A DNA stretch of 64,000 nt from Microgenomates group bacterium (GTDB taxonomy: Bacteria; Patescibacteriota; Microgenomatia; UBA12405). Below, one piece after another: positions 1,628 through 50,979 of this stretch. The notes beneath the pieces are model-generated. The model had not been told where the DNA came from, searched no databases, and saw only the letters and a program-made list of their open reading frames with translations. How positions within the stretch are numbered: the first letter of the stretch is position 1; every line of letters starts with the position of its first letter. Location of the stretch: assembly GCA_049303675.1 (NCBI GenBank), contig JBAQNJ010000001.1, forward strand, positions 7,494-71,493, written 5' to 3'. The translations under genes were made by a program, and so were the position numbers.

Positions 1628-1642
1628 CCTACTTCATATTTA

Positions 1643-20334: not shown

Positions 20335-20399
20335 TCTTCTTTTTCTTTTTTTTCTGTTATACTATCCCTTGTCCTACCGAAGACAGCCGGTTTTCTAGA

Positions 20400-20509
20400 A
20401 ATAGAATATAATTCCTGCCGAGGAACAAATTAGATTTTCTAAATCTACGCCTCGTTCTTCGAGGCTTTTTTATTTTACTTTATAAACTTTCAACTTTACA
20501 AACTAACGT
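20400..20509 (+). promoter_or_regulatory. putative L10 (rplJ) leader with attenuator hairpin
   Basis: Hairpins ttcctgccgaggaa and acgcctcgttcttcgaggc followed by TTTTTTATTTT end 33 nt before the rplJ ATG. The position matches the known L10(L12)4 autoregulatory leader. Confidence 0.5.
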
Positions 20510-27706: not shown

Positions 27707-27741
27707 CTGTTAACTGTTGACTGTAAACTGTTAACTGACAT
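27707..27741. repeat. tandem heptamer array (CTGTTAA/CTGTTGA/CTGTAAA/CTGTTAA/CTGACAT)
   Basis: In the divergent intergenic region between the HExxH gene and the excisionase-type HTH gene. Confidence 0.7.
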
Positions 27742-27814: not shown

Positions 27815-28072
27815 ATGGACGAACAAACCCTATCACAAGACAAACTTGTGAAACAAAATCCTGCTCCAAAAAAAATTAACGGAGTCAGTATCGACAATCT
27901 CCCCGACCTCCTAACCGTCGCCGAGGTCGCCGACCTACTTCGCGTATCAAAATTGACCATCAAGCGTTGGGGTAAGCGCGGCAAACTACCCGCCATTCGC
28001 ATCAACGCCCGCGGTGATCGCCGATACCGCAAAGAAGCCGTTCTCTGGCTACTGGGAATTCAAACCGAATAA
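27815..28072 (+). CDS. excisionase/MerR-type helix-turn-helix DNA-binding protein
   Basis: ...LLTVAEVADLLRVSKLTIKRWGKRGKLPAIRINARGDRRYRKEAV... matches the Xis/HTH_17 pattern. Confidence 0.7.
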   Translation: MDEQTLSQDKLVKQNPAPKKINGVSIDNLPDLLTVAEVADLLRVSKLTIKRWGKRGKLPAIRINARGDRRYRKEAVLWLLGIQTE

Positions 28073-30702: not shown

Positions 30703-31179
30703 CTAAATCTTCATAGTAAACCCATGGGTCAGCGCCACCGCTACTGCATCCGCTGCATGCGAAGGTGAGATACTTTGATCTAAATTCAACTCAGTCCGAA
30801 CCATTATTTCCACCTGCTCTTTCTCAGCTCTGCCATACCCCACCAATGCTTGCTTCACTTGAAGCGGAGTATATTCTGCCACTTCTAGTCCGTTTTTCTG
30901 ACCACATACCTTAATTACTCCAATCGCCTCCGCCACCTTCATTACCGACCTGGCATTTTTGGCAAAAAACAATGTCTCGATAGCCATTTCTGTTACCCCG
31001 AACTTTTTTATAATAATTTCCAATTCATCATAAATTTTACCCAATCTATCAGCGCTTTTATCTTTACTGTCAGTCACAATCACCCCACAATCTATCAATT
31101 CGTAATTCGTAATTTTTAATTCGTAATTAATTATCCCCCACCCAGTGTTTTCTAGTCCCGGATCAATGCCTAAAATCAT
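30703..31179 (-). CDS. ruvC: crossover junction endodeoxyribonuclease RuvC
   Basis: MILGIDPGLENTGWGI catalytic Asp N-terminus. Contains an in-frame NYELKITNYEL duplication encoded by AATTCGTAATT repeats. Confidence 0.9.
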   Translation of the reverse strand: MILGIDPGLENTGWGIINYELKITNYELIDCGVIVTDSKDKSADRLGKIYDELEIIIKKFGVTEMAIETLFFAKNARSVMKVAEAIGVIKVCGQKNGLEVAEYTPLQVKQALVGYGRAEKEQVEIMVRTELNLDQSISPSHAADAVAVALTHGFTMKI

Positions 31180-31212
31180 TTTTTCGTAATTCGTAATTTT
31201 TAATTCGTAATT
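31097..31212. repeat. clusters of AATTCGTAATT tandem motifs (one inside the ruvC 5' coding region, one in the ruvC upstream spacer)
   Basis: caattcgtaattcgtaatttttaattcgtaatta (31097-31130) and ttcgtaattcgtaatttttaattcgtaatta (31184-31212). Confidence 0.8.
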
Positions 31213-31997
31213 ATTTTAACACCATTCTCCACCCTACCATCATCATATAACGTGACTTCTGTATATCGAGGTGTCTGAGTATTCCTATCTCTTGATATCG
31301 CCCCCACCAATACCGTCTCCCAACCATCATTTGTATAGCTCGAAGCATAATGTAAATGTCCGGAATACCCTGTCACTATTCCATTGGTTACCAATATGTT
31401 TTTTAGCCACATGGCCTCATTGGCTGTCTCTAAACTATATTCCCCCATGACATGCTTCGACATAGTATTAAAAAGTGGCATATGCATTATGGCCACACAT
31501 TTAATTATTTTACACTCTGCTGACTCTTGCTCTATCCATATTTTTTGATCAGTCCCCAAACCTTGCCAATTACTATTATCTATCAACAATAATTTTATGC
31601 CATCAACTTTGACACTTTGATACTTTTCTCCAAATATCCACACTTTTTTATAATCATCGTGATTCCCTGGTACCTTATAAACTGGTATCTTCCATTTATC
31701 TGTCACCTCTTTCATTTTATTTTGCTCACCCATGGTCCCATTTATGGTCAGATCCCCTGCCAATACAATCATCTTAATTCCATCATTTTGCACCATATCG
31801 TAGACCTTTTGCAATGATTCCACATCATTGTGAATGTCTGCCATTATGGCAATTTTATTAATTATTTTATTGTTTTTTATTCTTGTTTCCAGTTTCACGT
31901 TTCTCGTTTCTACCGTTTTTATCTCTTTTTTCCTCGGCCAAAAAACAACTATTCCCACTATCGCTACCAAAACAAAAAATAGCCACCACTTTTTCAT
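31200..31997 (-). CDS. membrane-anchored calcineurin-like metallophosphoesterase
   Basis: N-terminal TM. IAIMADIHND...LAGDLT...GNHD metallophosphatase motifs. Confidence 0.8.
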   Translation of the reverse strand: MKKWWLFFVLVAIVGIVVFWPRKKEIKTVETRNVKLETRIKNNKIINKIAIMADIHNDVESLQKVYDMVQNDGIKMIVLAGDLTINGTMGEQNKMKEVTDKWKIPVYKVPGNHDDYKKVWIFGEKYQSVKVDGIKLLLIDNSNWQGLGTDQKIWIEQESAECKIIKCVAIMHMPLFNTMSKHVMGEYSLETANEAMWLKNILVTNGIVTGYSGHLHYASSYTNDGWETVLVGAISRDRNTQTPRYTEVTLYDDGRVENGVKIITN

Positions 31998-32116
31998 AAT
32001 TCATTTTACACCTTACTATATTATAAGAATTAAATTGTTTCCCCCACTTATCCACACGATATACCCATATTATATTACTCCAAGATAAAATAGTTATTTT
32101 GTTACTAACATACACC

Positions 32117-32155
32117 ATAATTCGTAATTAGTAATTCATAATTCGTAATTAAGTT
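32117..32155. repeat. AATTCGTAATT motif cluster upstream of murB
   Basis: ataattcgtaattagtaattcataattcgtaattaag. A TATAAT lies immediately before the murB ATG. Confidence 0.8.
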
Positions 32156-32165
32156 ATAATATATT

Positions 32166-33188
32166 ATGAATCTCTCCGACTTCCAGCAAAACATCCCCCT
32201 CGCCCCCTACACTACTCTAAAAATCGGTGGCCCCGCGCAATATCTAGCTATTGCCACGAAACAATCAGAATTATTTGAACTACTCAAGTTCCTCCATCAA
32301 AATCCTCACCTCCCCCAGACTATTTTGGGGTTAGGTTCTAATGTTGTTATATCAGACAGTGGTTTAAAGGGTCTTACTATAATAAACAAGGCCACTCAGA
32401 TAAAAATAACTGGTAACTCTGAACTCGTAACTGATAACTTTCAAGTTACCAACACCCAACGCCAAGAAAACGAACCCGAAAAGTATTTAGATTTTAATAA
32501 GATCGATTACGACGAATCTATTTATTCCACTCAAGAAGTCTTGATCCAGGCTGGTACCCCCCTCCCCTACGCTATCAATCATTTATTTACCCTTGGACTC
32601 ACCGGTCTTCAGTGGTTCTCCTACATCCCCAGCACCATTGGTGGCGCAGTCTACCAAAATATCCACGGTGGTAAATATCATTTTTCCGATTATATTGGCT
32701 CTGTCAAAGTATTTGACCTAACCACCGGCAAGACCAAATTGTTTAGAAAAGAAGAATTGACATGGCAATATGAGACTAGCTACTTTCAGCAACATCCCAA
32801 CTTAATCATTCTCTCAGTCCGGCTTCGGCTCTTCAAAGGTGATGTCAATTTGGCCAAACAAGTCTCCACAGCTTGGATTGCCCAAAAATCCCTAATCCAA
32901 CCTATGAATTCCTCAGGCTCTACTTTTGCTAACCCCTCTCTCAACGATTGTCTCCCTATCTGGGGAGAGCAAAAATCAGCTGGCTGGATAATCGACCATG
33001 AACTAAATCTCAAAGGATTCCACATCGGTGATGCCCAAATTTCTACTTTGCACAGCAATTTTTTTGTTAACACTGGACATGCCACTGCCACTGACTACAA
33101 AAAACTGGTTGAGCATGTCCAAAATGCAGTCTACAATAAGTTCAAAATAAAATTAATTCCCGAAGTCAAATTTTTGGGTGAGTTTTAA
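32166..33188 (+). CDS. murB: UDP-N-acetylenolpyruvoylglucosamine reductase
   Basis: LAPYTTLKIGGPAQYL N-terminus. FAD-binding and C-terminal MurB domains. Confidence 0.85.
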   Translation: MNLSDFQQNIPLAPYTTLKIGGPAQYLAIATKQSELFELLKFLHQNPHLPQTILGLGSNVVISDSGLKGLTIINKATQIKITGNSELVTDNFQVTNTQRQENEPEKYLDFNKIDYDESIYSTQEVLIQAGTPLPYAINHLFTLGLTGLQWFSYIPSTIGGAVYQNIHGGKYHFSDYIGSVKVFDLTTGKTKLFRKEELTWQYETSYFQQHPNLIILSVRLRLFKGDVNLAKQVSTAWIAQKSLIQPMNSSGSTFANPSLNDCLPIWGEQKSAGWIIDHELNLKGFHIGDAQISTLHSNFFVNTGHATATDYKKLVEHVQNAVYNKFKIKLIPEVKFLGEF

Positions 33189-33191
33189 ACT

Positions 33192-33455
33192 CTACAATAA
33201 CCCTGATTTATCAACATCCTTACTATTACGAACCCCAATTCCCTGAGCCTGATCCAATGATTTTCCAAAAGATGCTCCCAATACAATAGCCACCCTATTG
33301 GCAACACGATCGGCAACTATAATTACAGGTTCAATTATTGGTGCTACTACTAACAATAAATCTTCTCCAATGCTATTTCCAACACCACTTCTATCATGCG
33401 CAATAAATCGCATTTTATATCCCTTTAACTCATCAGGCAAATCTAAACCGTTCAT
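33192..33455 (-). CDS. questionable small ORF downstream of the tagA-like gene
   Basis: 87 aa, no motifs. Confidence 0.2.
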   Translation of the reverse strand: MNGLDLPDELKGYKMRFIAHDRSGVGNSIGEDLLLVVAPIIEPVIIVADRVANRVAIVLGASFGKSLDQAQGIGVRNSKDVDKSGLL

Positions 33456-34261
33456 TTTCCAAATAATACCATAAACATAAATTTTAGTAATTCGAATTTT
33501 CTTTTTCTTCTCCCCTTGTCAGTAAACAACGAATACAACCACTCTAACCCCATTTTTTGCATCCACCTTGGCGCTCGGGGCAATTCTCCCGAATAATAAT
33601 CAAACGTCCGTCCCAATCCAATCACCAATTCAACCCTGAGCTTGTCAAAATGGTCATTTATCCATAGTTCTTGTTTTTTCATGGCCCGACAGACAAACAA
33701 AAAATCAACACTTGTCTCGAAATCATAGTCTTCTGCCTGTGCCCCCACCACCTTTAACTTTGGATATTTTCTTAAAAAATATTCTGCTGTCCGCTGTGAT
33801 CTGTCGTCCCAACCTCCATAAAAGAAAACTGTCTTCCCTTTGGCCTGCGCCAACCGACACAAGTCATCTACTAGATCTACTCCGGTAATCACCTCATCAC
33901 CATATTTCCCCATCAACACTTTTACTCCCTCGCTAAAACCCACCATCAACTTTTTGACTTTTGACTTTTGACTTTTGACTTTCTTCGCCCATGCTAAACC
34001 AATTCCATCCACCACATTTATAGTAGTTCTATTTTGTAAAATTTTCATAAACTCCACATCCTTACGAGCATTCATCACAAATTCTGGATTTACCGTCGCT
34101 ATCCACACCGGAGTCTTTAGCTTATCCTTTGCCAAAATATCTAGCAGTAAGACCCTTGTTCTGCCAAATAGCGGAACACCACATATTTCCCAGTCCTTTA
34201 GCCCAAAATTACCTATCACTCTATCATTTTCTCGGCTACTTTTCTTTGGTTCTTGTATCAT
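33452..34261 (-). CDS. WecG/TagA/CpsF-family glycosyltransferase
   Basis: ...TVFFYGGWDDRSQRTAEYFLRKYPKLKVVGA... core typical of this family. Contains a (TTTTGAC)x4 heptamer microsatellite in-frame. Confidence 0.75.
   Translation of the reverse strand: MIQEPKKSSRENDRVIGNFGLKDWEICGVPLFGRTRVLLLDILAKDKLKTPVWIATVNPEFVMNARKDVEFMKILQNRTTINVVDGIGLAWAKKVKSQKSKVKKLMVGFSEGVKVLMGKYGDEVITGVDLVDDLCRLAQAKGKTVFFYGGWDDRSQRTAEYFLRKYPKLKVVGAQAEDYDFETSVDFLFVCRAMKKQELWINDHFDKLRVELVIGLGRTFDYYSGELPRAPRWMQKMGLEWLYSLFTDKGRRKRKFELLKFMFMVLFGK
33956..33983. repeat. (TTTTGAC)x4 heptanucleotide microsatellite inside a CDS
   Basis: ttttgacttttgacttttgacttttgac encodes KSKVKSQKS on the minus strand. Confidence 0.85.
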
Positions 34262-34557
34262 AGACTATATCAAACATTATCTATTTTTATTTTACCACTC
34301 ACTCCCACTTTTTGCTCCTCCAAAAACTATATCACATCCAGTCATATCTCCCTATATAATCAATATTATACAAGTCTATATAAATAACTATATCACTACC
34401 CATATCCAATAAACATATAAGATATTTGGCAAAAAATATACTCTCCGCCAAATATCAATTTTAGAATAATTTTATTGTACAAATATCAAACTAAAATTTA
34501 GCAAAAAACCCAAAAATAACACATGAAATTATTATGCAGTTATACTGTTGTTAATAG

Positions 34558-34588
34558 TCGTAATTCGTAATTAGTAATTCGTAATTTT
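34558..34588. repeat. AATTCGTAATT motif cluster
   Basis: agtcgtaattcgtaattagtaattcgtaatt in the spacer between the mreB stop and the tagA-like gene's upstream region. Confidence 0.8.
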
Positions 34589-34620
34589 TTATAAATTACA
34601 GGTTGTAATTTATAAATAGG

Positions 34621-35622
34621 TCATCGTATCGCTCGCCAGTATATATCCAAATTCTCGAGCGCTATCCCCGTCCCCCGAATTACACAAAATTGTGGCTCCG
34701 GCGCCACATGGGCCGACACCCCAATTTCCCGAGTTACCAAAACATTGAAGTTGCGCAGTAGTGATGTCCCTCCCGATAGAACTATTCCTCTATCAGCAAT
34801 ATCGGCCACCAACTCTGGAGGAGTAATTTCTAGAGTGTCACGAATCACCATGATAATACTACTGAGTATCGGCATAATCGCTTCATGAATTTGGTCCGAG
34901 TCAACTACTACCATTTTGGGTAACCCTGACACCGAGTCCCGACCGCTGACTTCCATTGTCTCAGGACGTTTTAGTTTGATAGCACTCCCAATTTTAATTT
35001 TAATTGCTTCCGATGTCTGTTCACCTACAATTAGATTGTGTTTCCGTTTTAGATAGTCAACGATAACTGCATCCAGCTTTACCCCACCTGTACGAACTGT
35101 TTTATGAGTCACTACCCCTCCCAAGGCAATTACCGCTGCTTCTGCTGCCCCACCCCCAATATCCACAATCATATTGCCATATGGCTCGGATACTGGAATT
35201 TTGGCCCCAATTGCCGCCGCTAACGGTTCATCAATCAAATAAGCTTTACGCGCTCCTGCCGAAATTGTCGCATCCATGACTGCCCGTTGTTCTACCTGAG
35301 TAACCCCAGCTGGCACACACACCATTACTTCTGGTCCGAGTATCCAGCCTCGTCCCATCACTTGACGCATAAAATACCTCATCATGGCCTCAGTTACCTC
35401 ATAATCAGCAATCACCCCATCCTCCATTGGTCTAATTACTTCTATATATTCCGGCGTCTTACCCAACATTTTCTTCGCTTCCTCACCCACCGCCAATATT
35501 TTACGATCATCCACTCCGATAGCTACAATTGTTGGTTCGTTCAAGACTACTCCCACTCCCTCCTCCCAGACCACCGAATTAGCCGTACCCAGATCAATGC
35601 CTAGTTTTTTGAATAGTTTCAT
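34621..35622 (-). CDS. mreB: rod shape-determining protein MreB
   Basis: LGIDLGTANSVV, actin-fold phosphate and adenosine motifs. 333 aa. Confidence 0.9.
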   Translation of the reverse strand: MKLFKKLGIDLGTANSVVWEEGVGVVLNEPTIVAIGVDDRKILAVGEEAKKMLGKTPEYIEVIRPMEDGVIADYEVTEAMMRYFMRQVMGRGWILGPEVMVCVPAGVTQVEQRAVMDATISAGARKAYLIDEPLAAAIGAKIPVSEPYGNMIVDIGGGAAEAAVIALGGVVTHKTVRTGGVKLDAVIVDYLKRKHNLIVGEQTSEAIKIKIGSAIKLKRPETMEVSGRDSVSGLPKMVVVDSDQIHEAIMPILSSIIMVIRDTLEITPPELVADIADRGIVLSGGTSLLRNFNVLVTREIGVSAHVAPEPQFCVIRGTGIALENLDIYWRAIR

Positions 35623-35683
35623 GTCAATTCATTATAACTATTTACTAGTCACTAATCACTATTCACTGTTCTATAATACTCAT

Positions 35684-37744: not shown

Positions 37745-37818
37745 CGGGGATTGGCGCAATTGGCTAGCGCGCACGGTTCGGAATCGTGAGGTTGCTGGTT
37801 CGAATCCAGTATCCCCGA
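37745..37818 (+). tRNA. tRNA-Pro (anticodon CGG)
   Basis: Cloverleaf: acceptor cggggat/atccccg, D arm gcgc-aattggcta-gcgc, anticodon stem cacgg/tcgtg with loop ttCGGaa, T arm gctgg-ttcgaat-ccagt. No CCA encoded. Confidence 0.85.
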
Positions 37819-37892
37819 CCGTGGGTTGCCGTAGCTTTGCGTAGGCACCCTGAGATACTGGATGAGAAATTTATCCGCCTGTGGCGGAAATC

Positions 37893-37911
37893 CAGTATCC
37901 CCGACTATACA
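37893..37911 (+). repeat. direct repeat of the tRNA-Pro 3' end (aatccagtatccccgac)
   Basis: Identical 17-18 nt to tRNA positions 37803-37820, located 73 bp downstream. Confidence 0.8.
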
Positions 37912-37988
37912 GTTTACAGAAAACAGTTAACTGTCAACAGATAAAAATAATCTCTGACAACTGTTTACTGTCAACTGTCAACTATTTA

Positions 37989-38060
37989 GTCCTCATAGTT
38001 CAATGGATAGAACGAGGGTTTCCTAAACCCTAAATGGTAGTTCGATTCTACCTGGGGATA
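37989..38060 (+). tRNA. tRNA-Arg (anticodon CCU)
   Basis: Acceptor gtcctca/tggggat (two G-U pairs), D arm gttc-aatggata-gaac, anticodon stem agggt/accct with loop ttCCTaa, T arm ggtag-ttcgatt-ctacc. Confidence 0.75.
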
Positions 38061-38487
38061 CACGTTTTCACACCATTCTCCGCAATATACAGCCCTATTA
38101 TTTTAATATCTCCGCACCTACTCCGCTCTATTTCCGCATACATTTTGTTGAAAATTAACAATAATTATTCAAAATACTTTTTCCGCAATTTTTAAAATAT
38201 ATTGACTTTTTCTAGTATATTTAACAACCTTAGATATCATATTTACCGCACTCAGGTAATTTTTGTCACCAAATATTTTCTCCACACGCTAATTATTTTC
38301 ACACTTAACAATAAATTTAGTCTATATTTTTCTACCCTATCAATTACTACCCATCTGTATCATTATTCGCTGTCTCCTATTTTCCACTGTTTATCATTTT
38401 CTATTTCGAACACAAACCCCAACGTGTACGATTTTTACCTATAAACACACCAACATATATTACCCAAAACAACTAGCAGAAATTCAC

Positions 38488-40956
38488 TTAGTTTGCCAAA
38501 ATCACAAAATTTACCATCCTCCCTTCCACATAGATCTCCTTGCTAATTGTCTTGTCCGCCAGCCAAACCTTCATCTTCTCCGTCTCCTTTGCTAGTTGTA
38601 GAATATTCCTCTTGTCTGTCAACTGTTCACTGTTAACTATTAACTCATCTCTCACCTTGCCGTTAATCGATATCATAATCTTCACCTGATCATCAACAAG
38701 GTATTTTGGGTCCACCACCGGCCATGATTGCTGATGCACTGAATCAATGTGGCCCAATCGGCTCCACATCTCCTCAGCCATATACGGAGCCATAGGCGCA
38801 ATTAATTTAATTAAAGTCTCTACATCATTAACTCGTAACTGATAACTGGTAACTGATAACTCATTCAAAGCTCCCATCAGTTTTGCCACCACAGTATTAT
38901 AACCAAACACCTCCAAATCCCTAGTCACCCCATCAATTAGCTTGTTTATTATCACTTTGACATCACTGTTGCTAGCATTACTTGTATTAATTTGCTCAGA
39001 AATATATTTTTCAAACCTATCTAAAAACCTCTTTACTCCCATTAAAGTATTTTCACTCCATGCCATCGTCCCAGTAAACGGTCCCATAAACATCAAATAC
39101 ATTCGCACTACATCAACTCCATATTTATCAGCTACTACCTCGGGTACTATTACGTTCCCCTTAGTCTTACTCATCCGCTGATTATCTGGGCCGAGTATCA
39201 CTCCATGAGACATTCTCATATAGTATGGCTCAGTTAACTCCTCTGGAAAAATATGAAGATCATATAAGAATTGATATATGAACCTAGAATAGAGTAAGTG
39301 AAGCGTGTTGTGTTCATCTCCACCAATGTATACATCTACCGGTCCCCAATATTTTAATATATCAGAATCTACCAATTTACTATTATTATGTGGATCCATA
39401 TACCTCAAAAAATACCAATCTGATCCAGCCCAATTTGGCATTGTGTCCGTCTCTCTTTTGGCAGGTCCTCCGCACTTGGGACAAGTGCAATTAACAAATT
39501 CGGGTATACGACTCAGTGGACTCAGCCCATCATCAGTCGGTTCATAAGCCTCTACCTCAGGTAACACTATTGGCAAGTTTTCTTCTTTTTCCGGCACCCA
39601 ACCCTGCCCGCCGTGGCGGGCACAACTCTCACAGTAAACCATTGGAATAGGCTCACCCCAATAATGCTGTCGACTAAATATCCAATCTCTCAAATGATAT
39701 TCTACTTTTCTTGTTGCCCACTTATTTTCCACCATCCAATCACTGATGGCCTTATATGCTTCATCTCTTGCCCTCATTCCACTAAATTGTTCTGAATTTA
39801 TCATCACCCCATCCTCAATTACTTTTTCATAGCTATCTATAACATAATTAGGTTTATCTTTTGGGACTTCAACCTGAATCATTTCTAGTCCATATTTTTT
39901 GGCAAACATAAAATCACGACTATCGTGTGGTGCTACACCCATGACCGCACCTGTCCCAAAATTTGCCAATACATAATCTCCCACCCAAACAGGAATTTTT
40001 TTATTATTAACCGGATTAATTACATAACTTCCCGTAAATACCCCAGTTTTTTCTGATGTCCCCGAAGTTCGATCCATTTCACTTTTCTTCTGTGATTCTT
40101 TGATATACTCATCAACTATTTGTCTGTTTTCTTCAGTAACCAAACAATCTAACTCAGGATACTCTGGTGAAACTACTACCCAACTAGTTCCAAATATAGT
40201 TTCCGGATATTTTGTAAAACAACTTATCTTTGTATTATTACCATCAACTACAAAATCAATTATCAAACCCTCTTTTCTCCCAATCCAATTAATTTGTGCC
40301 TGTTTGACCTTGTCAATAAAATTTGTTTCTTTTAACCCGTCAATCAACCTATCGGCATAATCGGTAATCTTGACTACCCATTGTGATATATTTCTCCTCG
40401 ACACTTCACTACCACACCGCTCACATTTATTATCGATAACCTCTTCATTGGCTAAGCCAATTTTACAGCTCGGGCACCAGTTAATCGGCATTTCTTTTTT
40501 ATATGCCAAGCCAGCCTTAAACAACTTTACAAAAATCCATTGCGTCCATTTGTAATAGTTTGGATCAGTGGTATCGACCTCACGGCTCCAATCATAAGAA
40601 AAAGCCAATCGATCCATTTGTGACCTAAACATATCAGTGTTTTCTTTTGTCACCACTTGTGGTTTTTTCTTCATTTTTATTGCAAAATTTTCGGTCGGCA
40701 ATCCAAAAGCATCCCAACCCATGGGAAATAATACGTTATACCCTTGCATCCGTTTAAACCGAGCAAACACATCTCCACCCGTAAACGAAAAGGCATGACC
40801 CACATGCAACCCCGATCCCGACGGATAGGGAAACTCGTTTAAAATATATTTTTTAGGTTTTACCTGCCCGGCAACGGCCGGGTCATCCGCCCTATACAAT
40901 TCTGGATGTTCACTCCAAAATTTTTGCCACTTGGCTTCAATCTCCTTAAAATCCAT
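38488..40956 (-). CDS. leuS: leucine--tRNA ligase
   Basis: ...FPYPSGSGLHVGHAFSFTGGDVFARFKRMQGYNVLFPMGWDAFGLPTEN... HIGH region, KMSKT (RMSKTKGN). 822 aa. Contains in-frame repeat insertions. Confidence 0.95.
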   Translation of the reverse strand: MDFKEIEAKWQKFWSEHPELYRADDPAVAGQVKPKKYILNEFPYPSGSGLHVGHAFSFTGGDVFARFKRMQGYNVLFPMGWDAFGLPTENFAIKMKKKPQVVTKENTDMFRSQMDRLAFSYDWSREVDTTDPNYYKWTQWIFVKLFKAGLAYKKEMPINWCPSCKIGLANEEVIDNKCERCGSEVSRRNISQWVVKITDYADRLIDGLKETNFIDKVKQAQINWIGRKEGLIIDFVVDGNNTKISCFTKYPETIFGTSWVVVSPEYPELDCLVTEENRQIVDEYIKESQKKSEMDRTSGTSEKTGVFTGSYVINPVNNKKIPVWVGDYVLANFGTGAVMGVAPHDSRDFMFAKKYGLEMIQVEVPKDKPNYVIDSYEKVIEDGVMINSEQFSGMRARDEAYKAISDWMVENKWATRKVEYHLRDWIFSRQHYWGEPIPMVYCESCARHGGQGWVPEKEENLPIVLPEVEAYEPTDDGLSPLSRIPEFVNCTCPKCGGPAKRETDTMPNWAGSDWYFLRYMDPHNNSKLVDSDILKYWGPVDVYIGGDEHNTLHLLYSRFIYQFLYDLHIFPEELTEPYYMRMSHGVILGPDNQRMSKTKGNVIVPEVVADKYGVDVVRMYLMFMGPFTGTMAWSENTLMGVKRFLDRFEKYISEQINTSNASNSDVKVIINKLIDGVTRDLEVFGYNTVVAKLMGALNELSVTSYQLRVNDVETLIKLIAPMAPYMAEEMWSRLGHIDSVHQQSWPVVDPKYLVDDQVKIMISINGKVRDELIVNSEQLTDKRNILQLAKETEKMKVWLADKTISKEIYVEGRMVNFVILAN

Positions 40957-43035: not shown

Positions 43036-43828
43036 TCTTTTTTAAATAATTATCATCCCGAACTGTTTCTTTTCCCCGAGTACCTTTTTTGTTGCGCAGT
43101 CCCATCGCTAGTTTTTGCGCCCCTTTTTGATCATATTGCTCCACCAACAATCCATCGATAATATGAAATAATTTTGTTGCATACCGCAAATATTCCAAAT
43201 CGTGAGTTACCATTATTACCGTCCGACCTTCGTCCTGATTTAAACTCCGCAATAATTCCATTAGTTCATCACCTGAAACTGTGTCCAAATTTCCCGTCGG
43301 TTCATCGGCCACCAAAATTAATGGATCGATTGTCAAAGCTCGGGCCAAACTAACTCTTTGTTGTTGGCCCGAAGACAGTGAATTTGGGTGATAACCCTGC
43401 CAACCTTCTAGCTTAACTTTCTTCAAGGCTATTAATGCTTTTTCCTCCGACTGCTCCAAACTTAAGCCCCGCAATCTATTTGGCACACACACATTTTCCA
43501 TAACATTTAGGGATTTAATCCAAATTGGTTGTTGAAACACAATTCCAATATTATTTTTTCGATAACGCACAATTCCTTCCTCACCCATAGCATAATAGTC
43601 ATCTCCTTCAATCAATACTTTACCCTCTGTTGGTTTTTCCAGTCCCAACAAAGTATGCAATAGAGTTGACTTGCCACAACCAGATGGCCCAAAAATAACT
43701 GCAAAATCGCCCTTGTTAATTGACAAATCAATCCCCTTTAATACTTCGACCGTCTGGCTACCTACTTCAAAACTCTTTCTTATAGCTGATGCCACAACTA
43801 AATTAGTATTGCTATTTATGTTTTTCAT
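43013..43828 (-). CDS. ABC transporter ATP-binding protein (MacB/LolD-type)
   Basis: GPSGCGKSTLL Walker A, LSGGQQQRVSLARAL signature, Walker B DEPTGNLD. Confidence 0.9.
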   Translation of the reverse strand: MKNINSNTNLVVASAIRKSFEVGSQTVEVLKGIDLSINKGDFAVIFGPSGCGKSTLLHTLLGLEKPTEGKVLIEGDDYYAMGEEGIVRYRKNNIGIVFQQPIWIKSLNVMENVCVPNRLRGLSLEQSEEKALIALKKVKLEGWQGYHPNSLSSGQQQRVSLARALTIDPLILVADEPTGNLDTVSGDELMELLRSLNQDEGRTVIMVTHDLEYLRYATKLFHIIDGLLVEQYDQKGAQKLAMGLRNKKGTRGKETVRDDNYLKKSGKKYVK

Positions 43829-46800
43829 TGTGAAATTTTACCCAATCCTCCGAAAAAACCAAAACTCTTGGATAAACTATTAACCACCAAGTCTAAAGCC
43901 GATTTTGTGGCTTTTGGAGTCACCGTCACATTATCTGCCGATTCAATTTGGTTACCAATTCTATCTCGGGATATTATTCTCAAATGATAGACTTGAGATG
44001 GTTTTAAATCTGTCACTGTCACTACATGATTCATCGTCAAATTGCCATCTTCCTGAGTCCTGTTGGGATAATCAGTCCCAGTTCCTTCACCATACTCAAT
44101 CTGACTTGTTGCCGGCTCATCAGTATTCCAATACACCATTATTTGGGCTTTTGTGACTTCTCCCACTCCATTTATTGCCCCCTCAGCCCTCATATCAGTG
44201 ATTAATGGTGGTCTTAAATCAGCTGATGTCTTAAATTTATTTTGACTAGATTTTGCCTCATTTCCCGCATAATCTTTGCCTTTTACGATTACAATATAAT
44301 CAGTATCATCTAACAAGTCTTTTATTAACAACTGGTGATTTTGGCTCAAAGTTAAGCCAACCTGATCTTTTGTCATTTCCGGCCTACCAGTTGGGTAATA
44401 ACTTACAATCGACGACACACCTGTATTTGTTTTCCAAGAGACCATTATGGTCGCAGTCGACATTCCTTTCACCTGTTGAATTTTTACTCCCTCAATTTTT
44501 GGCATTGGCAAAGTTGAAAATTCATAGTCATCAGAAGTAAATTTATTACCCTCTTCATCTTCAGCCACAATTTTTAAATGATATTTCATTCCCTCCTCCA
44601 AACCATCCAACTTAGAAGTATATGTCGAGGATGAGGTTGAGGTTGTTAACTCAAAAACCGAACCATAAATAGTCGTTTTCCCATATTGAATTGTCGCTTT
44701 TGAAGCATTACTTAATCCAAACTTTACATAAACTGAATATAGGCCAATATCAGTTATACTCACAGTTGAAACTACTGGAGCCGGGTTAGTTGTAAGAGAA
44801 TATTCAGTCGATTCACCTGTATTTCCGTCCTCATCAGTCCACGTCGCTTTATAATAATAAGTAGTTCCCGGATCTAGACCGGTTAGTGCAATTTCATGAG
44901 AAGAGAGTAGTTCAGACGAGCCCACTTCTTCTCCATAACTACCAGCACTCTTCCCATATTTTACAAAAGAATTACCCTTTCGATTGGTTGACCAGCTTAT
45001 TGTTGCCGTCTTTGTCTTAACACTAGAGGTAGGTTCAGCTGTTAATGTCGGCGGTACTCGCCACTTACCATCAGGTAATAACGACACTGTTGAGCTAACA
45101 GCACTACACTCACTCGTCGAGTCACAAGCTTTGACACAATAATAATATTTAGACTGCAATAAATTTGTATCAATAAACGATGTCCCCGTTGTCGATGATG
45201 CGTAGCTAAAATCAGTGAAATCAGAACTACATGATGCACTAGTAGTCGTACTTCGATATACCTTATACGAGGCGATTCCTGACCCACTCGCCTCTGGTGC
45301 ATCCCATGACAGTGCCAGTCGCCAGCTATTTGTTTCCTTTATTGAGACATCTGAGATATCCAAATTACGTGATACCCCTGGAGCCGAGGTCGATGCTTCA
45401 AAATCCAAACTAGCATAATTTTGATATCTACCCTCACTGGTAGATATGTTGCCTGCTTCATCAGACACTACTACATAAATTGTATTTACTCCTTTTCGGG
45501 TAGCATACTGACCCCGACTCAAATATCGAACATTTGTCCCCACTGTAATTACATTTGACGGAGTTGGCAACTCATTAATTGAATATTTGTAGACCAAATT
45601 TGAGGCTGCTCCCAAAAAGCTCTCTGGCTGGTCCCAAGCAAAAGCAAAATCATTTTCACTATTACTAGTTCCCACACTAGGATATGTCAACCGTAAATTT
45701 GTTGGTCGACTGGGTGCCGATCCACTATATTTATAAATTGCTGTCAAATAACTGCTAGCAAAATTCCCTGCTGCATCTTTTACCCGCAAATAAAAAATAT
45801 TTTCATCCGATTGATATTTAGTAATCCCTGTCACCCCAGTTACCCCCACATCAGTAATACATTGTTCATCTGTTGTCTCAGTTTTATAACAATAAGCAGA
45901 TATCCCTGAGGCTGTATCAGTTCCACTTCCCCAAGTAAAAGTAAAATTATCAGTCGTAGTATATCCCGGAGGATCGGCCAAAACAGCCGTTGGATTTATT
46001 GGTGTTTCGTTATCAAATTTATAGACATAAGTTGTTCCAACACCTGCCGTCACGTTATTGGCATTATCAATCGTTTTCATTCGAAAATAATATGTTTGAC
46101 CAGAAGTCAAACTAGTTCCCACTAAACTTGTCGCTGTTGTATAAGTTCCCAAACTCACCGGATCAGCCGTCTCCCCCAATCCAAAATAAACATAATAGCC
46201 CTTTATCCCCGAGCCATTTACCCCGTCACTTGCCCCACTCCAACTAAAAACTGGCGCCGTCGAATTATTCCACACTCCCGATACCACTGTTGAACTATAA
46301 TTGTCGGGATTTATCGGCTCAACCGTATCCTGATAATAGTTAACACTATAACTATTTATTACTCCCGAATGAACACCATTACTAGATGTTAGTCCTAGTT
46401 TTATTTGCAAATACCTGCTTACAGTTGAATTAATTTTATAGCTCTGACTCATCCCTACTGTCTTTTGTTCTGACGCCACCACCCAGTCCCCCCAAGTTAC
46501 ATTATCTGCCGATGTTCTGGTATAAACTGATAAATCAGTATTGCCTGGCATGGTTGTCTCCACTGTCAAAGAAGCAAATTTGTAGACCGCCGTCAAATCA
46601 TAAACCGGAGAAATATAATTTCCACTTTCTTCAAACGAAGAATTGGCCCCCGAAATTACATATGTATACAATCCGTTACCAAAAGTATTTAACTGACCAC
46701 TACCCGCAATCACATAAACTTTATCTCCCGAGGCATCAACGGTGGCCGCCCCTCCTGCTGTAATATACGGTGCCGTTACACTCGATACCAAACTCCAACT

Positions 46801-49800
46801 ATTCCCTGTTATTGAGTACCGATAACAGGTATTTTGATTTCCCCCTCGACAAGCCATTAAATAATCTCCACCTAAATCCACTAGAAAACCATCATTATAT
46901 ATATTTGCCCCCACTGGCAAATCCGCCACCGATACATCCGACCAGGTTGCACCCACTGACAATGGTCCATAGCGAGTAAATCCAAGTGTATTTCCCCCTC
47001 GCAAGGTATAAATATAGTCATTTTTCAACACCATGTCACTCCCATAACTTATGGTCAGACCAGTATTTGGCAAAATACTCCACTTACTTGTCCCCACTCC
47101 TTCAGTATTAAATCGATAAAAAGTTTGTGTCCCCCCACCTCGTAACCAATAAATATATTTATCTGTTGGATTAAATATCATTGAGCTTCCCTCTGCCACA
47201 TCCACTGGCGGTGGATCTCCAATCTCTTCACTCCAACTATCAGATGCAATATCATAAACATAAAATTTACGATAAATATTACTCACTGTCGCATAAATTC
47301 GACTATGAACACTGTCATATACTAACTCCGCCCCTAAATAAATTCCTGCCGGTAAATCGGCCATTTTTGTTGCCACTCCTGTTGCTGAATTATAACGAAC
47401 AAACAAATTATCATAATTTCCCCGAGTTAAATACAAATTATTTCCATCACCCAAAATTATATCCGCCCCATATCCAAAACCTCGACTATCACTCCCTCTA
47501 AACCATCCTCCAAAAACGCCCACTGTCGGTATTAGCCATGAATTTTTAGCAATATTGTACTTATACATCGCCGCCGACCCGCCCCCCGGGGACATATACA
47601 AACTACCGTTAACCATTTTTAATGACGAACCGTTACTTACCCCAATCGGTGTTTCTGCCAACTCGCTCCATGTTTGTGAATTAATATCAAATTTATAAAA
47701 AAAGTTACGTCCCAAACCATTTAAATAATAAAGTGAATTAGTAGCGCCATCATATGTCAATTGCGAACCAGAGCTGGCATATGCCGGTAAATCGGGCAAA
47801 ACCATCCAACTATTTCCCGAAATACTATACGAAGCAAAACCATCACGTGCCCCACCCTGCAAAACATATAATGTATCTGCCCCATCATAAGCCAAATCAC
47901 CTCCATCATTTATCACATTATTTGGTTGGTTAATTGGAGCATTAAAATCAACATTGGCCAGTGTCTCCCACGCATCCGCAATCGTATCATAACGCATCAA
48001 CGCATCATCTCCCGACCCTCTAATCGCGTAAATATATCGACTCCCGTCATATCTCATTGACGCTCCGTACGATATTGTTTGAGTTACATCCGCCGCCGCC
48101 ACATCTGACCAAGTCGTTGTCCCCACATCAAACCGCCAAAAACCATTTGTCCCATACCCCCGCATGGCATAAATATAATTTCCCGGACCTTCAGCCAAAC
48201 CACCCCCATAATAGACCGTCCCCGGTGCCGTTGGTCCCACCGACACCGTGTTGGTTGTCAAGTCATAAATATAAAAAATATTCGATCCATATCCCCTAAA
48301 TAAATACATTTTGTTAGTACTTGCCTTGTACGCCCAGCTTCCTCCGTAATATATTCCTGCTGGCAAACTGGAAATCCGTTCCTGCTCCCAAAATCCCGGT
48401 TTACTCAATAATTTCATTTGATCACCACTCAAATCAAAATTACTAGTTGTCCCCAAACCAAAGTCCGAAGTTAGTGATTTTGTCAACGTTAATGGTGGGG
48501 AAATTCCATTATAGTTATACACAAACCCCGTCATTGCCGCTGAAGTATTACCCACTCCATCCACCGTTACTAGCCGTAAATAATACGGTAACTGATCCAT
48601 CGGTGTTGTTACTACATAATTACTCAATGTTTGATAATTACCCTCGACAACCGGATTTGCACTTGACCCAGTTCCAAAATAGACATAATAACCAGCCACC
48701 GAAGTTTCTGGGTCAGTCGCCCCCACAAAACTAAAATATGGTGATTGATAATCATAATTTTCTCCAGAAGTTAGACCAATTCCTGCAACTTGTTGCGACA
48801 TCCCAGTTATCACATTTGGTCCAATTGGCACTCCTGTATCTCCCACATAATTCACTGTCACCCCCAGTAGTGACGGAGTTTGACTCCCATCACTTGTCGA
48901 CACCATAGTCACACCTATTTGCAAATAACGTAAAGGTGCACTTCCAATACTACTTCCCACTCCAGCCACCCAATCAGTCCAAGTTACTTTGTCACTACTA
49001 CTCCGCGTTGCAAAACTTATTGACGAGTCTCCCGGCAAGGTTGACTGGATTTGTAAACTACTCCAAGATGCCACATAACCAAAATCAATTGCACTGCTTG
49101 TCCACCCCCCACTACTCGGGTAATTACCCGCATCTACAGTATAAGTTAATAACCTAGTTACCCCGTTACCCAAAATCACATAAAAAGTTCCATTTCCTAA
49201 AGATTCAATTGACGCCCCAGCCCAAGGTCCAATTTCCGTCGGACCATAATCTTGAGTCGGCGCCAACCTTCGCCAACTAGCGCTGGCAATTGTATATTCC
49301 CAAAAATCCGGTTTGTAATATCCAGCCAAAAAGTATAATTTACCATTGTAATAACTCACATCTGACCCATAATAAGGCGCAAACGGTATATTTGAAATTA
49401 CTGACCAAGTAGTAGTCCCAACTGTGTATTTATAAAGTTTGCTCATTCCACTCCCTGGCATGTAATAAATATCAGTCCCATCTGACGCTAATCTAGCTCC
49501 ATAACCAGCCTCCGCATCATCGGGTAAATCCGTCGCCGCCGCATCACTCCACGTTTCCCCCACCCCAATCGTATATCGCCAAAATGTCCGAGTTAGCGCC
49601 CCCCGAGTCGCATACAAATAACTTCCACTTCCCGGATAAATAATTGATGCCCCATAATTTACCGTCGAGGGAGTTCCCAATAAATTTGTCCAAGTGCCTC
49701 CCACCCCTACTGATGGGTCAAATTTATAAAAAGCTGTCGTCCCTATTCCTCTTAAATAATAAAAACTACTACCAATATTGATTCCCTTAACATCATCACC

Positions 49801-50979
49801 AAAATAAGCCGGTGCATCCGCCATTGTTTGCCATGTTCCTCCAATCGTATAACGATACATATTCGCACTGTTTGCTCCACGATTCATATACAAATACGAC
49901 CCATCATACAACAAATCTGCCCCTGTACTCGGTGCATTTGGTGTATCGACTGACCCTTCAAAACTATTAGTTCGCGGATTATATTTCCAAAAATCGTAAC
50001 TTCCATTTCCTCGAAACACATATACATACCCTGTCGCCGTATTACCCACTCCCACCACACCTACATAATATGTCGGCCACGGTGTCCCCGGCAAGGTTGA
50101 CCAAGTTGTCGTTCCCAAGTCAAATCGATAAAAAGCAGTTGACCCATAATCCAAATTATAATAAAGGAAATCTCCAAATATATCCGAATTATGGGGAGCA
50201 TATGATATATTTGGCGCCGGAATATTTGGTAAAGTTGTCCACAAATTTGTCGAAACTTGATATCGATAAAAACTGTTCGAATCACCTCTGGGTGTATAAA
50301 AATACCCATTTTTGTACGATAAACTCGCTCCACGTCCAATTGTCGCCGGCGGTGCACCCAAACTCATCCAGGTACTATTTGTTGGATCGTAACGCCAATA
50401 GTCAGAAGTATATGATCCACGCAATAAGTAGATGTAAGTTCCATCAGACCCAAGCGATGCCCCATCTGCCAATAAATCCGGAGCGTCATTCAAATTAACC
50501 CAACTATTATTGGCGATTGAATATCGGCTAAATTTTTTATTATACGACCCAAAAATTGCATAAATATTATCACCCACTATCACCAAGTCAGCTCCCGCCG
50601 CCGTCGCATGTGGGGCATTGGCCAGTTGTTGCCATCGGTCTTCCCCGGGAATATATCGAGCAAAATAGCGATCGGTTGATTCCATCATATACAAATAAGT
50701 CCCATCTGAGACTATAGCTGTCTGGTTTGACATCGCTACTTTTGGTGCTTGCCACACCCTCGCCCCCCATGTTCCTGCTGACTTTAGTCGAATTTCACCT
50801 TCTTTACTCTTTGTTTCAGTATTTTCAAAAAAACCAGTTTCAAAATCAGCCCGAGTCGTCATTACTCTGTCAGTTGCCATAACCGATCTATTTTTCCACC
50901 ATATCGTGACTATCAATAGCCCAATCAAAACCCCCAACACTACCACCCACTTAAATATAGGCAAGTTAACCAATTTCAT
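43825..50979 (-). CDS. giant cell-surface protein (2384 aa) with Kelch/beta-propeller-like repeats and fibronectin type III domains
   Basis: N-terminal TM/signal. Dozens of ...Y...G..LY...G.....F..Y......W..L... blade repeats. FN3-like segments (e.g. GTTYYYKATWTDEDGN). 4-nt overlap with the downstream ABC ATPase gene. Confidence 0.8.
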   Translation of the reverse strand: MKLVNLPIFKWVVVLGVLIGLLIVTIWWKNRSVMATDRVMTTRADFETGFFENTETKSKEGEIRLKSAGTWGARVWQAPKVAMSNQTAIVSDGTYLYMMESTDRYFARYIPGEDRWQQLANAPHATAAGADLVIVGDNIYAIFGSYNKKFSRYSIANNSWVNLNDAPDLLADGASLGSDGTYIYLLRGSYTSDYWRYDPTNSTWMSLGAPPATIGRGASLSYKNGYFYTPRGDSNSFYRYQVSTNLWTTLPNIPAPNISYAPHNSDIFGDFLYYNLDYGSTAFYRFDLGTTTWSTLPGTPWPTYYVGVVGVGNTATGYVYVFRGNGSYDFWKYNPRTNSFEGSVDTPNAPSTGADLLYDGSYLYMNRGANSANMYRYTIGGTWQTMADAPAYFGDDVKGINIGSSFYYLRGIGTTAFYKFDPSVGVGGTWTNLLGTPSTVNYGASIIYPGSGSYLYATRGALTRTFWRYTIGVGETWSDAAATDLPDDAEAGYGARLASDGTDIYYMPGSGMSKLYKYTVGTTTWSVISNIPFAPYYGSDVSYYNGKLYFLAGYYKPDFWEYTIASASWRRLAPTQDYGPTEIGPWAGASIESLGNGTFYVILGNGVTRLLTYTVDAGNYPSSGGWTSSAIDFGYVASWSSLQIQSTLPGDSSISFATRSSSDKVTWTDWVAGVGSSIGSAPLRYLQIGVTMVSTSDGSQTPSLLGVTVNYVGDTGVPIGPNVITGMSQQVAGIGLTSGENYDYQSPYFSFVGATDPETSVAGYYVYFGTGSSANPVVEGNYQTLSNYVVTTPMDQLPYYLRLVTVDGVGNTSAAMTGFVYNYNGISPPLTLTKSLTSDFGLGTTSNFDLSGDQMKLLSKPGFWEQERISSLPAGIYYGGSWAYKASTNKMYLFRGYGSNIFYIYDLTTNTVSVGPTAPGTVYYGGGLAEGPGNYIYAMRGYGTNGFWRFDVGTTTWSDVAAADVTQTISYGASMRYDGSRYIYAIRGSGDDALMRYDTIADAWETLANVDFNAPINQPNNVINDGGDLAYDGADTLYVLQGGARDGFASYSISGNSWMVLPDLPAYASSGSQLTYDGATNSLYYLNGLGRNFFYKFDINSQTWSELAETPIGVSNGSSLKMVNGSLYMSPGGGSAAMYKYNIAKNSWLIPTVGVFGGWFRGSDSRGFGYGADIILGDGNNLYLTRGNYDNLFVRYNSATGVATKMADLPAGIYLGAELVYDSVHSRIYATVSNIYRKFYVYDIASDSWSEEIGDPPPVDVAEGSSMIFNPTDKYIYWLRGGGTQTFYRFNTEGVGTSKWSILPNTGLTISYGSDMVLKNDYIYTLRGGNTLGFTRYGPLSVGATWSDVSVADLPVGANIYNDGFLVDLGGDYLMACRGGNQNTCYRYSITGNSWSLVSSVTAPYITAGGAATVDASGDKVYVIAGSGQLNTFGNGLYTYVISGANSSFEESGNYISPVYDLTAVYKFASLTVETTMPGNTDLSVYTRTSADNVTWGDWVVASEQKTVGMSQSYKINSTVSRYLQIKLGLTSSNGVHSGVINSYSVNYYQDTVEPINPDNYSSTVVSGVWNNSTAPVFSWSGASDGVNGSGIKGYYVYFGLGETADPVSLGTYTTATSLVGTSLTSGQTYYFRMKTIDNANNVTAGVGTTYVYKFDNETPINPTAVLADPPGYTTTDNFTFTWGSGTDTASGISAYCYKTETTDEQCITDVGVTGVTGITKYQSDENIFYLRVKDAAGNFASSYLTAIYKYSGSAPSRPTNLRLTYPSVGTSNSENDFAFAWDQPESFLGAASNLVYKYSINELPTPSNVITVGTNVRYLSRGQYATRKGVNTIYVVVSDEAGNISTSEGRYQNYASLDFEASTSAPGVSRNLDISDVSIKETNSWRLALSWDAPEASGSGIASYKVYRSTTTSASCSSDFTDFSYASSTTGTSFIDTNLLQSKYYYCVKACDSTSECSAVSSTVSLLPDGKWRVPPTLTAEPTSSVKTKTATISWSTNRKGNSFVKYGKSAGSYGEEVGSSELLSSHEIALTGLDPGTTYYYKATWTDEDGNTGESTEYSLTTNPAPVVSTVSITDIGLYSVYVKFGLSNASKATIQYGKTTIYGSVFELTTSTSSSTYTSKLDGLEEGMKYHLKIVAEDEEGNKFTSDDYEFSTLPMPKIEGVKIQQVKGMSTATIMVSWKTNTGVSSIVSYYPTGRPEMTKDQVGLTLSQNHQLLIKDLLDDTDYIVIVKGKDYAGNEAKSSQNKFKTSADLRPPLITDMRAEGAINGVGEVTKAQIMVYWNTDEPATSQIEYGEGTGTDYPNRTQEDGNLTMNHVVTVTDLKPSQVYHLRIISRDRIGNQIESADNVTVTPKATKSALDLVVNSLSKSFGFFGGLGKISQ

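Follow-up and report, generated by a model that had tools for sequence, protein, structure and literature searches.

Four AATTCGT arrays between mreB and ruvB

The 64-kb stretch of bacterial DNA analyzed here (the window, meaning the whole stretch) contains a group of genes from mreB to ruvB in which four clusters of the tandemly repeated heptamer AATTCGT (AATTACG as read on the minus strand) were found. On the minus strand, mreB (34621-35622) is followed by a tagA/WecG-like gene (33452-34261) and an open reading frame (ORF) of 87 amino acids; murB then lies on the plus strand (32166-33188), and the minus strand resumes with a metallophosphoesterase gene (31200-31997), ruvC (30703-31179), ruvA and ruvB. 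The closest RuvC relatives of the window belong to Candidatus Shapirobacteria, and the host is a Shapirobacteria-like bacterium of the candidate phyla radiation with a genome of ~1 Mb. The locus was compared with 80 ruvC loci (L002-L081) from different species of Candidatus Shapirobacteria relatives, 1.15 Mb in total; the nearest RuvC is 82-83% identical, the closest locus pairs are 83-90% identical in DNA, and the mreB-to-ruvB gene order is kept in ~60 related loci. This analysis revealed that the AATTCGT clusters belong to a known kind of heptanucleotide simple-sequence repeat, that of the short tandemly repeated repetitive (STRR) and TAACTGA repeats.

An earlier reading of this DNA made from its letters (the sequence-only reading) had drawn attention to the four clusters as tandem motifs. 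Their positions were confirmed, and their frequency is far above chance: with no more than one mismatch allowed, the window contains 16 matches to AATTCGTAATT, compared with 3.57 +/- 2.02 in dinucleotide-preserving shuffles (n = 100), none of which reached 16, and 12 of the 16 matches fall within the four clusters. Arrays were called using Tandem Repeats Finder in combination with a lag-match period scan of the window. The clusters are tandem repeats as described, with a different unit: Tandem Repeats Finder returned period 7 for all four, corresponding to the heptamer AATTCGT rather than an 11-12-mer, in 4.1-4.7 copies each (Table 1). All four arrays are confined to 3.5 kb and point the same way along the chromosome, even though transcription of murB runs opposite to that of ruvC. 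The two at ruvC are near-duplicates, with 33 of 34 positions identical (97%) between 31099-31132 and 31183-31216, including a variant unit AATTTTT, at a distance of 84 nt (12 units). The repeats are direct and without dyad symmetry, unlike a LexA/SOS box; the remark in the sequence-only reading that they do not look like LexA boxes held, and its suggestion of an SOS-like element was unsupported.

Table 1. Heptamer arrays and hairpins in the window: the four AATTCGT (AATTACG) arrays, then the other features in order of position
Feature	Coordinates	Strand	Copies or other value
AATTACG array inside ruvC, codons 18-28 (NYELKITNYEL)	31097-31128	-	4.6 copies (Tandem Repeats Finder)
AATTACG array at the metallophosphoesterase/ruvC junction	31183-31212	-	4.3 copies (Tandem Repeats Finder)
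AATTCGT array in the -35/upstream zone of the murB promoter	32118-32150	.	4.7 copies (Tandem Repeats Finder)
AATTCGT array just after mreB, directly beside a hairpin	34558-34586 (feature span 34555-34587)	.	4.1 copies
TCTGATA array, ribonucleotide reductase linker residues 638-648, between barrel and TSCPD domains	2784-2813	-	
CATCTGA array near the C-terminus of an Hsp70/MreB-like ORF	12679-12709	+	
CTGTTAA array, divergent intergenic region upstream of a small HTH_17/MerR-like gene	27707-27737	.	
GTTTCNC array in the metallophosphoesterase gene, residues 29-38	31885-31911	-	
TAACTSG array in murB, residues 81-92	32406-32439	+	
TTTTGAC array in the tagA-like gene, residues 92-105 (AKKVKSQKSKVKKL)	33949-33986	-	4.4 copies, perfect
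Terminator-like 16-bp hairpin with T-rich tail, between array and tagA start	34421-34456	-	
Hairpin just after the mreB stop, arms AAATTAC / GTAATTT	34588-34616	-	-9.3 kcal/mol, z = -4.15
ACTAATC-type array exactly between two back-to-back -10 boxes	35637-35671	.	5 units
CTGTCAA array, 4 nt upstream of tRNA-Arg	37954-37985	.	
CTGTTAA-type array in leuS, residues 771-781	38616-38646	-	
TAACTGA-family array in leuS, residues 698-710 (NELSVTSYQLRVN)	38829-38864	-	
ACTGATC array, SLBB-HHH linker of a ComEA-like protein, residues 118-128	54020-54052	-	
TTTCTAG array, signal-peptide hydrophobic core (SFIFLVSSFLFLVSI)	55081-55123	+	
TTTCTAG array, second signal-peptide hydrophobic core (VLVSSFLFLV)	62829-62856	+	
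TTTTTAC intergenic array	63797-63838	.	

Heptamer arrays across the window

The sequence-only reading had also described the motif as expandable repeat DNA, and this description was borne out by a wider set that it had overlooked. The four clusters are part of ~20 period-7 arrays in the window, the other ~16 having different units; the units seen include CTGATAT, ACTGTTA, TAACTGA, TTTTGAC, TTTCTAG, ACTAATC and TTTTTAC. Period 7 was the only enriched period, with 22 lag-match segments compared with 0.1 in shuffles and 0-1 segments for the other periods from 4 to 13; a signal at period 14 is a harmonic of 7. The arrays are short (25-43 nt, ~4-5 units) and most are interrupted. Thirteen of the ~20 lie inside genes, encoding ribonucleotide reductase, LeuRS (two arrays), MurB, TagA, RuvC, the metallophosphoesterase, FtsX, a ComEA-like protein, an Hsp70/MreB-like ORF, an alpha/beta-hydrolase ORF and two signal peptides. 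Within genes the 7-nt repeats are read in all three frames and give a 7-residue repeat, and the reading frame is intact around all coding arrays examined, both here and among the relatives.

Comparison of the arrays' own folding with that of shuffles revealed no significant structure (z from -1.7 to +0.4). A structured RNA or an element resembling repetitive extragenic palindromes or miniature inverted-repeat transposable elements was rejected, since the arrays fold no better than shuffles and have neither terminal inverted repeats nor flanking duplications. The heptamer arrays are themselves 80% AT, with G equal to C and no GC skew. The GC skew of the window is strong and uniform (16582 C and 8957 G, skew ~-0.3), and the ruvC-sense strand is the G-rich strand in all 80 related loci (skew 0.18-0.47).

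Some array sites have further peculiarities. The two uncharacterized secreted proteins with TTTCTAG arrays (55064-55130 and 62804-62860) both have SSFLFLVS cores made from this one heptamer. The small HTH_17/MerR-like gene (27815-28072, plus strand) lies close to ruvB, as it does in two close relatives, and the CTGTTAA array in front of it lies just upstream of its promoter-like TTGACC. A tRNA-Pro(CGG) gene lies near tRNA-Arg(CCT) (37745-38061), and 17 nt of its 3' end (AATCCAGTATCCCCGAC) recur ~85 nt downstream in what resembles an integration scar; a reverse-oriented ACAGTTN mini-array adjoins the forward array in this region. Elsewhere in the window, Rfam matches at the gathering score identified an AdoCbl-II riboswitch (1579-1654, minus strand) and a ribosomal protein L10 leader (20359-20480, plus strand), and a giant ORF of 2384 amino acids (43825-50979, minus strand) adjoins genes for a MacB/FtsX-type ABC transporter.

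Arrays at promoters and in the mreB-tagA spacer

Three of the clusters had been placed immediately 5' of operon starts by the sequence-only reading. This applies to murB only: among the four arrays it is the one that is truly promoter-proximal, the array upstream of ruvC lies at a gene junction, and the one assigned to tagA adjoins the end of mreB. At murB, the array is followed by the TATAAT that had been reported directly after it (32155-32160), then by 5 nt and the ATG at 32166, a leaderless-type layout. Arrays of other units lie upstream of murB in L004, L006, L007, L015, L018 and L045; the relatives have AATTACT, AAATTCT, AAACTCC, AAAAATT or AGATCTC units there, or no array. A further array fills the divergent spacer between mreB and a PEGA-domain gene, flanked by the -10 boxes ATTATA (35631-35636, mreB) and TATAAT (35672-35677, PEGA-domain gene). 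At least 12 relatives lack an array there, their spacers being just 18-19 nt long with overlapping -10 boxes; several other species have different arrays in the spacer, including period-8 arrays in L026 and L076. This comparison indicates that the arrays occupy the zone upstream of the -10 box and, since so many species are array-less there, that they are probably dispensable for promoter function. The clade appears to use -10-only promoters of a leaderless type (TAnAAT, 5-8 nt, ATG), and a promoter consensus scan, with 19 sites compared with 16.8 expected, was uninformative.

The array in the mreB-tagA spacer lies 34 nt after the mreB stop codon and 294 nt before the tagA ATG (34261). The hairpin beside it is partly made of inverted copies of an AATTCGT-family heptamer, and a comparable hairpin is predicted at the same position in several relatives. 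The post-mreB spacer contains 24 arrays in 19 of the related loci, with varied units. The layout of the whole spacer (34262-34620) is common to the relatives and consists of the stop codon, TATAGT, a hairpin whose loop resembles CCTATA, either an array or a T-rich tract, and a conserved GAC(A/T)NTATAA box, after which the strong terminator-like hairpin follows in the window. The spacer may be a small RNA gene; an Rfam search of 34200-34680 gave no match even at E = 1.

The ruvC junction array and the RuvC hairpin

The junction array lies within the 20 nt separating the metallophosphoesterase stop codon (TAA, 31200-31202) from the ruvC ATG (31179). In most relatives with the metallophosphoesterase gene upstream, its stop codon overlaps the ruvC start as ATGA; in others the ruvC ATG is preceded, at 5-7 nt, by a TAnAAT box. 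An array was absent from this position in most relatives checked, and a period-8 array was found there in L018. Judged from these overlapping or promoter-bearing junctions, the array is a lineage-specific insertion into a gene junction or promoter and not the mark of an operon start.

Within ruvC, the in-frame peptide NYELKITNYEL was confirmed at residues 18-28, after GIDPGLENTGWGII. The orthologous site holds arrays in 13 loci, and more than 25 loci have no insert after GIDPGLENTGWG (D-G-EKLV, RuvC proteins of 152 amino acids). AATTACG is found at this site in the window, L006, L008, L009 and L023; other loci have AATCATC/AATCTTC, TCAAACA, AGATTCA, AGAAACT, AGATCGT or AGATCTC at residues 15-29, and L025, L040 and L053 have period-8 arrays (CAGCTTAT). 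Turnover of the unit is fast, with AGATCTC x 3 in the same 12-codon hairpin of a relative whose RuvC is 82% identical. RuvC orthologues also carry the same duplication as the window, for example NYELRIKNYELI, NYELRISNYKLL and NYKLSITNYELI, an observation that the sequence-only reading had itself set against its operator proposal. A recent expansion specific to this ruvC was rejected, as orthologues down to ~68% identity have NYEL-type or other heptamer-encoded hairpins. In an AlphaFold2 model of RuvC (predicted local distance difference test score 90.4), strands span residues 11-20 and 25-35 with a turn at 21-24, and the array is accordingly predicted to encode the tip of the beta2-beta3 hairpin. 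The alternation of polar and hydrophobic residues in NYELKIT suggests a peptide suited to a beta-strand. In a close relative (L085), a 212-amino-acid ORF directly after ruvC (1648-2286) has a faint match to Y1 transposase (PF01797), and long CGTAAAC arrays lie upstream of ruvC.

Recurrent sites, unit turnover and strand polarity among relatives

Across the 80 loci we identified 125 period-7 arrays compared with 1-21 for each other period from 4 to 12, at densities that range by species from 0 to 6.8 per 10 kb. The arrays have a median length of 33 nt in a continuous range of 25-79 nt. Sixty-one are intergenic, although intergenic DNA represents only ~12% of the total, 50 (40%) are coding and 14 lie at gene edges. 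For intergenic arrays, the median distance is 28 nt to a gene end but 108 nt to a gene start. For AATTACG itself, seven of nine arrays in the relatives are within coding sequence (LeuRS, TagA, RuvC and RuvA).

The same sites were occupied repeatedly. Ten arrays were found in the ruvA-ruvB spacer, 14 arrays from 12 loci in LeuRS at residues ~233-245, ~650-661, ~698-710 and ~770-784 (the last in 6 loci), 10 in TagA at residues ~92-107 (6 loci) and ~161-173, 8 in MurB at residues ~42-52 and ~83-92, 7 upstream of murB and 5 in RuvA at residues ~27-40. Period-8 arrays use hot spots that hold period-7 arrays elsewhere (L018, L025, L026, L040, L053 and L076). An assembly artefact was rejected, as dozens of independent assemblies have in-frame arrays at matching residues.

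Units are shared more often within a genome than between genomes. Allowing at most one mismatch, 25.6% of within-genome array pairs share a unit, a value reached in none of 500 permutations, compared with 11.8% of between-genome pairs; for arrays in different genomes, 17.7% of pairs at the same site share a unit compared with 8.6% at different sites. Arrays within one genome can match down to identical interrupted 30-mers, and in L002 a 21-nt stretch (TTCAAACATCAAACATCAAAA) is common to arrays in LeuRS, an intergenic spacer and RuvC. Taken against the ruvC-sense strand, each family has an almost invariant orientation (AATTACG 12:0, AATAATT 16:1, AATTTCT 8:0, AATTTTT 8:1, AGATCTC 6:0, AATCTTC 6:0). 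This orientation is unchanged inside and upstream of murB, which lies on the opposite strand, and is thus tied to the chromosome strand rather than to the way in which a gene is transcribed.

The search was extended to viral contigs in IMG/VR, where (AATTACG)3 was found in 64 stretches on contigs of 24-67% GC and (TAACTGA)3 in 107, compared with 22 for (AATTAGC)3 and 3 for (ATCATAG)3, two controls of the same composition. The AATTACG unit is therefore not specific to the Shapirobacteria-like lineage. On three phage-like contigs (L115, L107 and L091), AATTACG inverted pairs form perfect hairpins of ~20-30 bp between genes; one IMG/VR contig with such pairs has a terminase related to that of a Sinorhizobium phage, and one of 9.9 kb and 55% GC has 11 AATTACG arrays.

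Origin of the arrays

The arrays sit where extra DNA is tolerated: upstream of -10 boxes, after stop codons and hairpins, at gene junctions, and at hairpin tips, linkers and signal peptides of proteins. We consider it probable that they stem from slippage together with direct-orientation copying between arrays, and that they persist where insertions are tolerated. Replication slippage would create and resize the arrays, template switching or gene conversion would copy them into one another in direct orientation, and most would persist as harmless DNA. No cognate regulator would be required. Effects on expression would be by-products, such as replacement of the murB -35 zone by an array or the array-made leader of ~33 nt before ruvC, and a local effect on murB or ruvC expression may result.

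Several points weigh against this explanation. Slippage alone explains neither the preference for 7 nt nor the recurrence of certain heptamers in unrelated genomes (the 64 and 107 stretches compared with 22 and 3 for the controls), and it does not account for strand polarity or recurrent sites. A strand-specific function, in place of descent and direct copying, could lie behind the fixed orientation. By rough estimates, occupancy exceeds the intergenic baseline ~3-fold in the post-mreB spacer and ~7-fold in the ruvA-ruvB spacer, an excess that may be due to selection. Within arrays, mismatches fall slightly more often at particular unit positions (z = 3.5), a weak signal that was not used. Finally, the resizing of arrays by slippage is a prediction from loci of which the closest pairs are 83-90% identical in DNA.

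The sequence-only reading had favored a shared operator or promoter-proximal element for an unknown regulator. Against that proposal stand the ~16 further arrays of other units in this genome, the coding location of many arrays, the turnover of units at orthologous promoters and an orientation independent of transcription. An operator or SOS box was rejected because arrays lie in coding DNA, are not conserved at orthologous promoters and have a direct-repeat geometry; nor are the arrays confined to non-coding DNA as operators or iterons would be, with one of four in the window and seven of nine AATTACG arrays in the relatives being coding. A more general version sees in the arrays functional cis-elements for a nucleic-acid-binding protein whose specificity co-evolves with the dominant unit of each genome. 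Such elements could work at the DNA level, in the manner of the TTTTGAT heptads of ctxAB, as operators or upstream promoter elements, or at the RNA level as 5' leader or 3' untranslated region elements, as proposed for TAACTGA and for the Nostoc recF/recO heptamers. Two arrays in the window that abut -10 boxes exactly (32118-32150 and 35637-35671), another directly before the ruvC ATG, the above-baseline occupancy of the post-mreB and ruvA-ruvB spacers, the genome-specific unit families, the fixed orientation, the recurrence of the same heptamers across phyla and the published regulatory claims for heptamer arrays are all consistent with this version. We nevertheless regard it as unlikely, given that ~40% of arrays (and most AATTACG arrays in the relatives) are coding, that the unit is not conserved at orthologous promoters, many of which are array-less, that intergenic arrays lie nearer to gene ends than to starts, and that orientation takes no account of which way a gene is transcribed. 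A candidate binding protein was not found, and nothing ties the HTH_17/MerR-like gene to the arrays.

Small mobile cassettes, inserted or exchanged at preferred targets by an enzyme such as a transposase, recombinase or reverse-transcriptase-like protein, would account for identical interrupted copies at several sites and for the replacement of whole families at one site. The near-identical 34-nt copy 84 nt from its twin at ruvC and the TTCAAACATCAAACATCAAAA stretch at three sites of L002 fit this model, as do the close relative with AGATCTC in place of AATTACG in a hairpin of equal length, the local clustering of same-family arrays (four AATTCGT arrays in 3.5 kb) and the presence of the same families in phage contigs. 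Yet the arrays have no terminal inverted repeats, target-site duplications or hairpin structure; no associated enzyme gene was found apart from the faint Y1 transposase match beside ruvC in one relative, and the continuous lengths (25-79 nt) and period-8 variants at the same sites fit slippage better than a fixed cassette, which makes enzyme-borne cassettes quite improbable. Still less credible is a role as contingency loci in which gain or loss of one unit switches genes by phase variation, as in E. coli neuO. Heptanucleotide phase variation is documented in other systems, and the perfect 4.4-copy array in the tagA-like cell-envelope gene and the arrays in two signal peptides would suit it, but arrays also occur in genes that cannot be switched off (those for LeuRS, ribonucleotide reductase and MurB), RuvC has one too, most arrays are short and interrupted, and all coding arrays examined lie in intact reading frames; we consider this explanation very improbable.

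Slippage with direct-orientation copying thus remains our preferred explanation. A bolder proposal, which we put forward as doubtful, is that Shapirobacteria carry a strand-polar heptamer-cassette system, actively copied between preferred sites that include beta-hairpin tips and linkers of essential proteins, with AATTACG and TAACTGA families shared with cyanobacteria, Beggiatoaceae and phages. If this were true, some templating or binding factor common to several phyla and so far unrecognised would underlie the bacterial excess of 7-nt repeats. As a caution, repeat DNA can pose as the signal of a regulon when a striking motif recurs close to several gene starts. In these very small genomes, arrays reshape promoters, the RuvC and RuvA hairpins, loops of LeuRS, MurB and TagA, and signal peptides.

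Comparison with known heptanucleotide repeats

In the literature searched, the AATTACG repeat is not printed anywhere and simple-sequence repeats are not mentioned in the candidate phyla radiation; the host lineage is thus apparently unreported for heptamer repeats. Several known systems resemble the arrays in part. The nearest model for the operator idea is the ctxAB promoter of Vibrio cholerae, which is reported to use TTTTGAT heptads (bioRxiv 10.1101/2021.05.14.444153). As described there, it shares with the window tandem AT-rich heptamers immediately upstream of a promoter. It is a single locus with known binding proteins, whereas the arrays of the window lineage lie in coding loops and at gene ends and lack conservation at orthologous promoters. 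In Nostoc, heptamers at recF and recO have been reported to modulate expression. A heptanucleotide repeat in E. coli neuO has documented phase variation (PMC13001214). Like the arrays studied here it is a tandem DNA repeat that alters a protein, but the arrays of the window lineage stay in frame. The neuO repeat acts as an on/off switch. In Borgs, too, in-frame tandem DNA repeats add segments to proteins or alter them (PMC9879509). The repeats in Borg genes give rise to disordered regions, whereas the window arrays are short, in frame across species, and extend beta-hairpins, linkers and signal peptides.

The TAACTGA direct repeats of marine Beggiatoaceae, cyanobacteria and Bacteroidetes, for which a role in translation was suggested (MacGregor 2015, PMC4679880), are similar in several respects. 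They occur in 2-6 copies with stops in all three frames on one strand and the other strand open, and some overlap stop codons or sit just before start codons (PMC4679880). Reverse TAACTGA repeats inside genes encode LSVISYQ (PMC4679880), and the leuS array of the window encodes an LSV(T)SYQ-like peptide, NELSVTSYQLRVN. In Beggiatoa one unit dominates and is oriented to the downstream gene, whereas the window lineage has many units, an orientation fixed by the chromosome strand and positions nearer to gene ends. A forward orientation a few nucleotides before start codons, as expected for a translational role of the TAACTGA type, is not the pattern in this lineage, where orientation goes with the chromosome strand and gene starts lie farther from the arrays than gene ends do; the array upstream of ruvC fits by position only.

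STRR heptamers are present in the cyanobacteria Calothrix and Nostoc (PMC4692102). As in the window, several heptamer families coexist dispersed in one genome. The units of STRR sequences include CCCCAGT, TTGGTCA and CAACAGT. The ACTGTTG/ACTGTTA arrays of the window are the reverse complement of the CAACAGT type. STRR sequences differ in being described as mostly intergenic and often longer, and we know of no description of their recurrence at orthologous protein loops with turnover of the unit.

According to the summaries of Mrazek et al. (2007) in PMC4679880 and PMC4692102, heptamers are the commonest class of long simple-sequence repeat (LSSR) in most genomes, polymerase slippage has been proposed as their source, and they are strongly enriched in Nostoc and Xanthomonas. 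The arrays resemble heptanucleotide LSSRs in their tandem 7-nt units, over-representation of period 7 and sporadic occurrence among lineages; the window lineage differs in its ~1-Mb candidate phyla radiation host, in the ~40% of arrays that lie in frame in conserved genes and in the fixed strand orientation. Head-to-tail 7-nt units, an excess of period 7 and many dispersed arrays enriched in intergenic DNA are the features that unite the arrays with the LSSR, STRR and TAACTGA repeats, and the recurrent sites, unit turnover, near-absolute polarity and sharing between distant phyla observed here bear on why bacteria favor 7-nt repeats.

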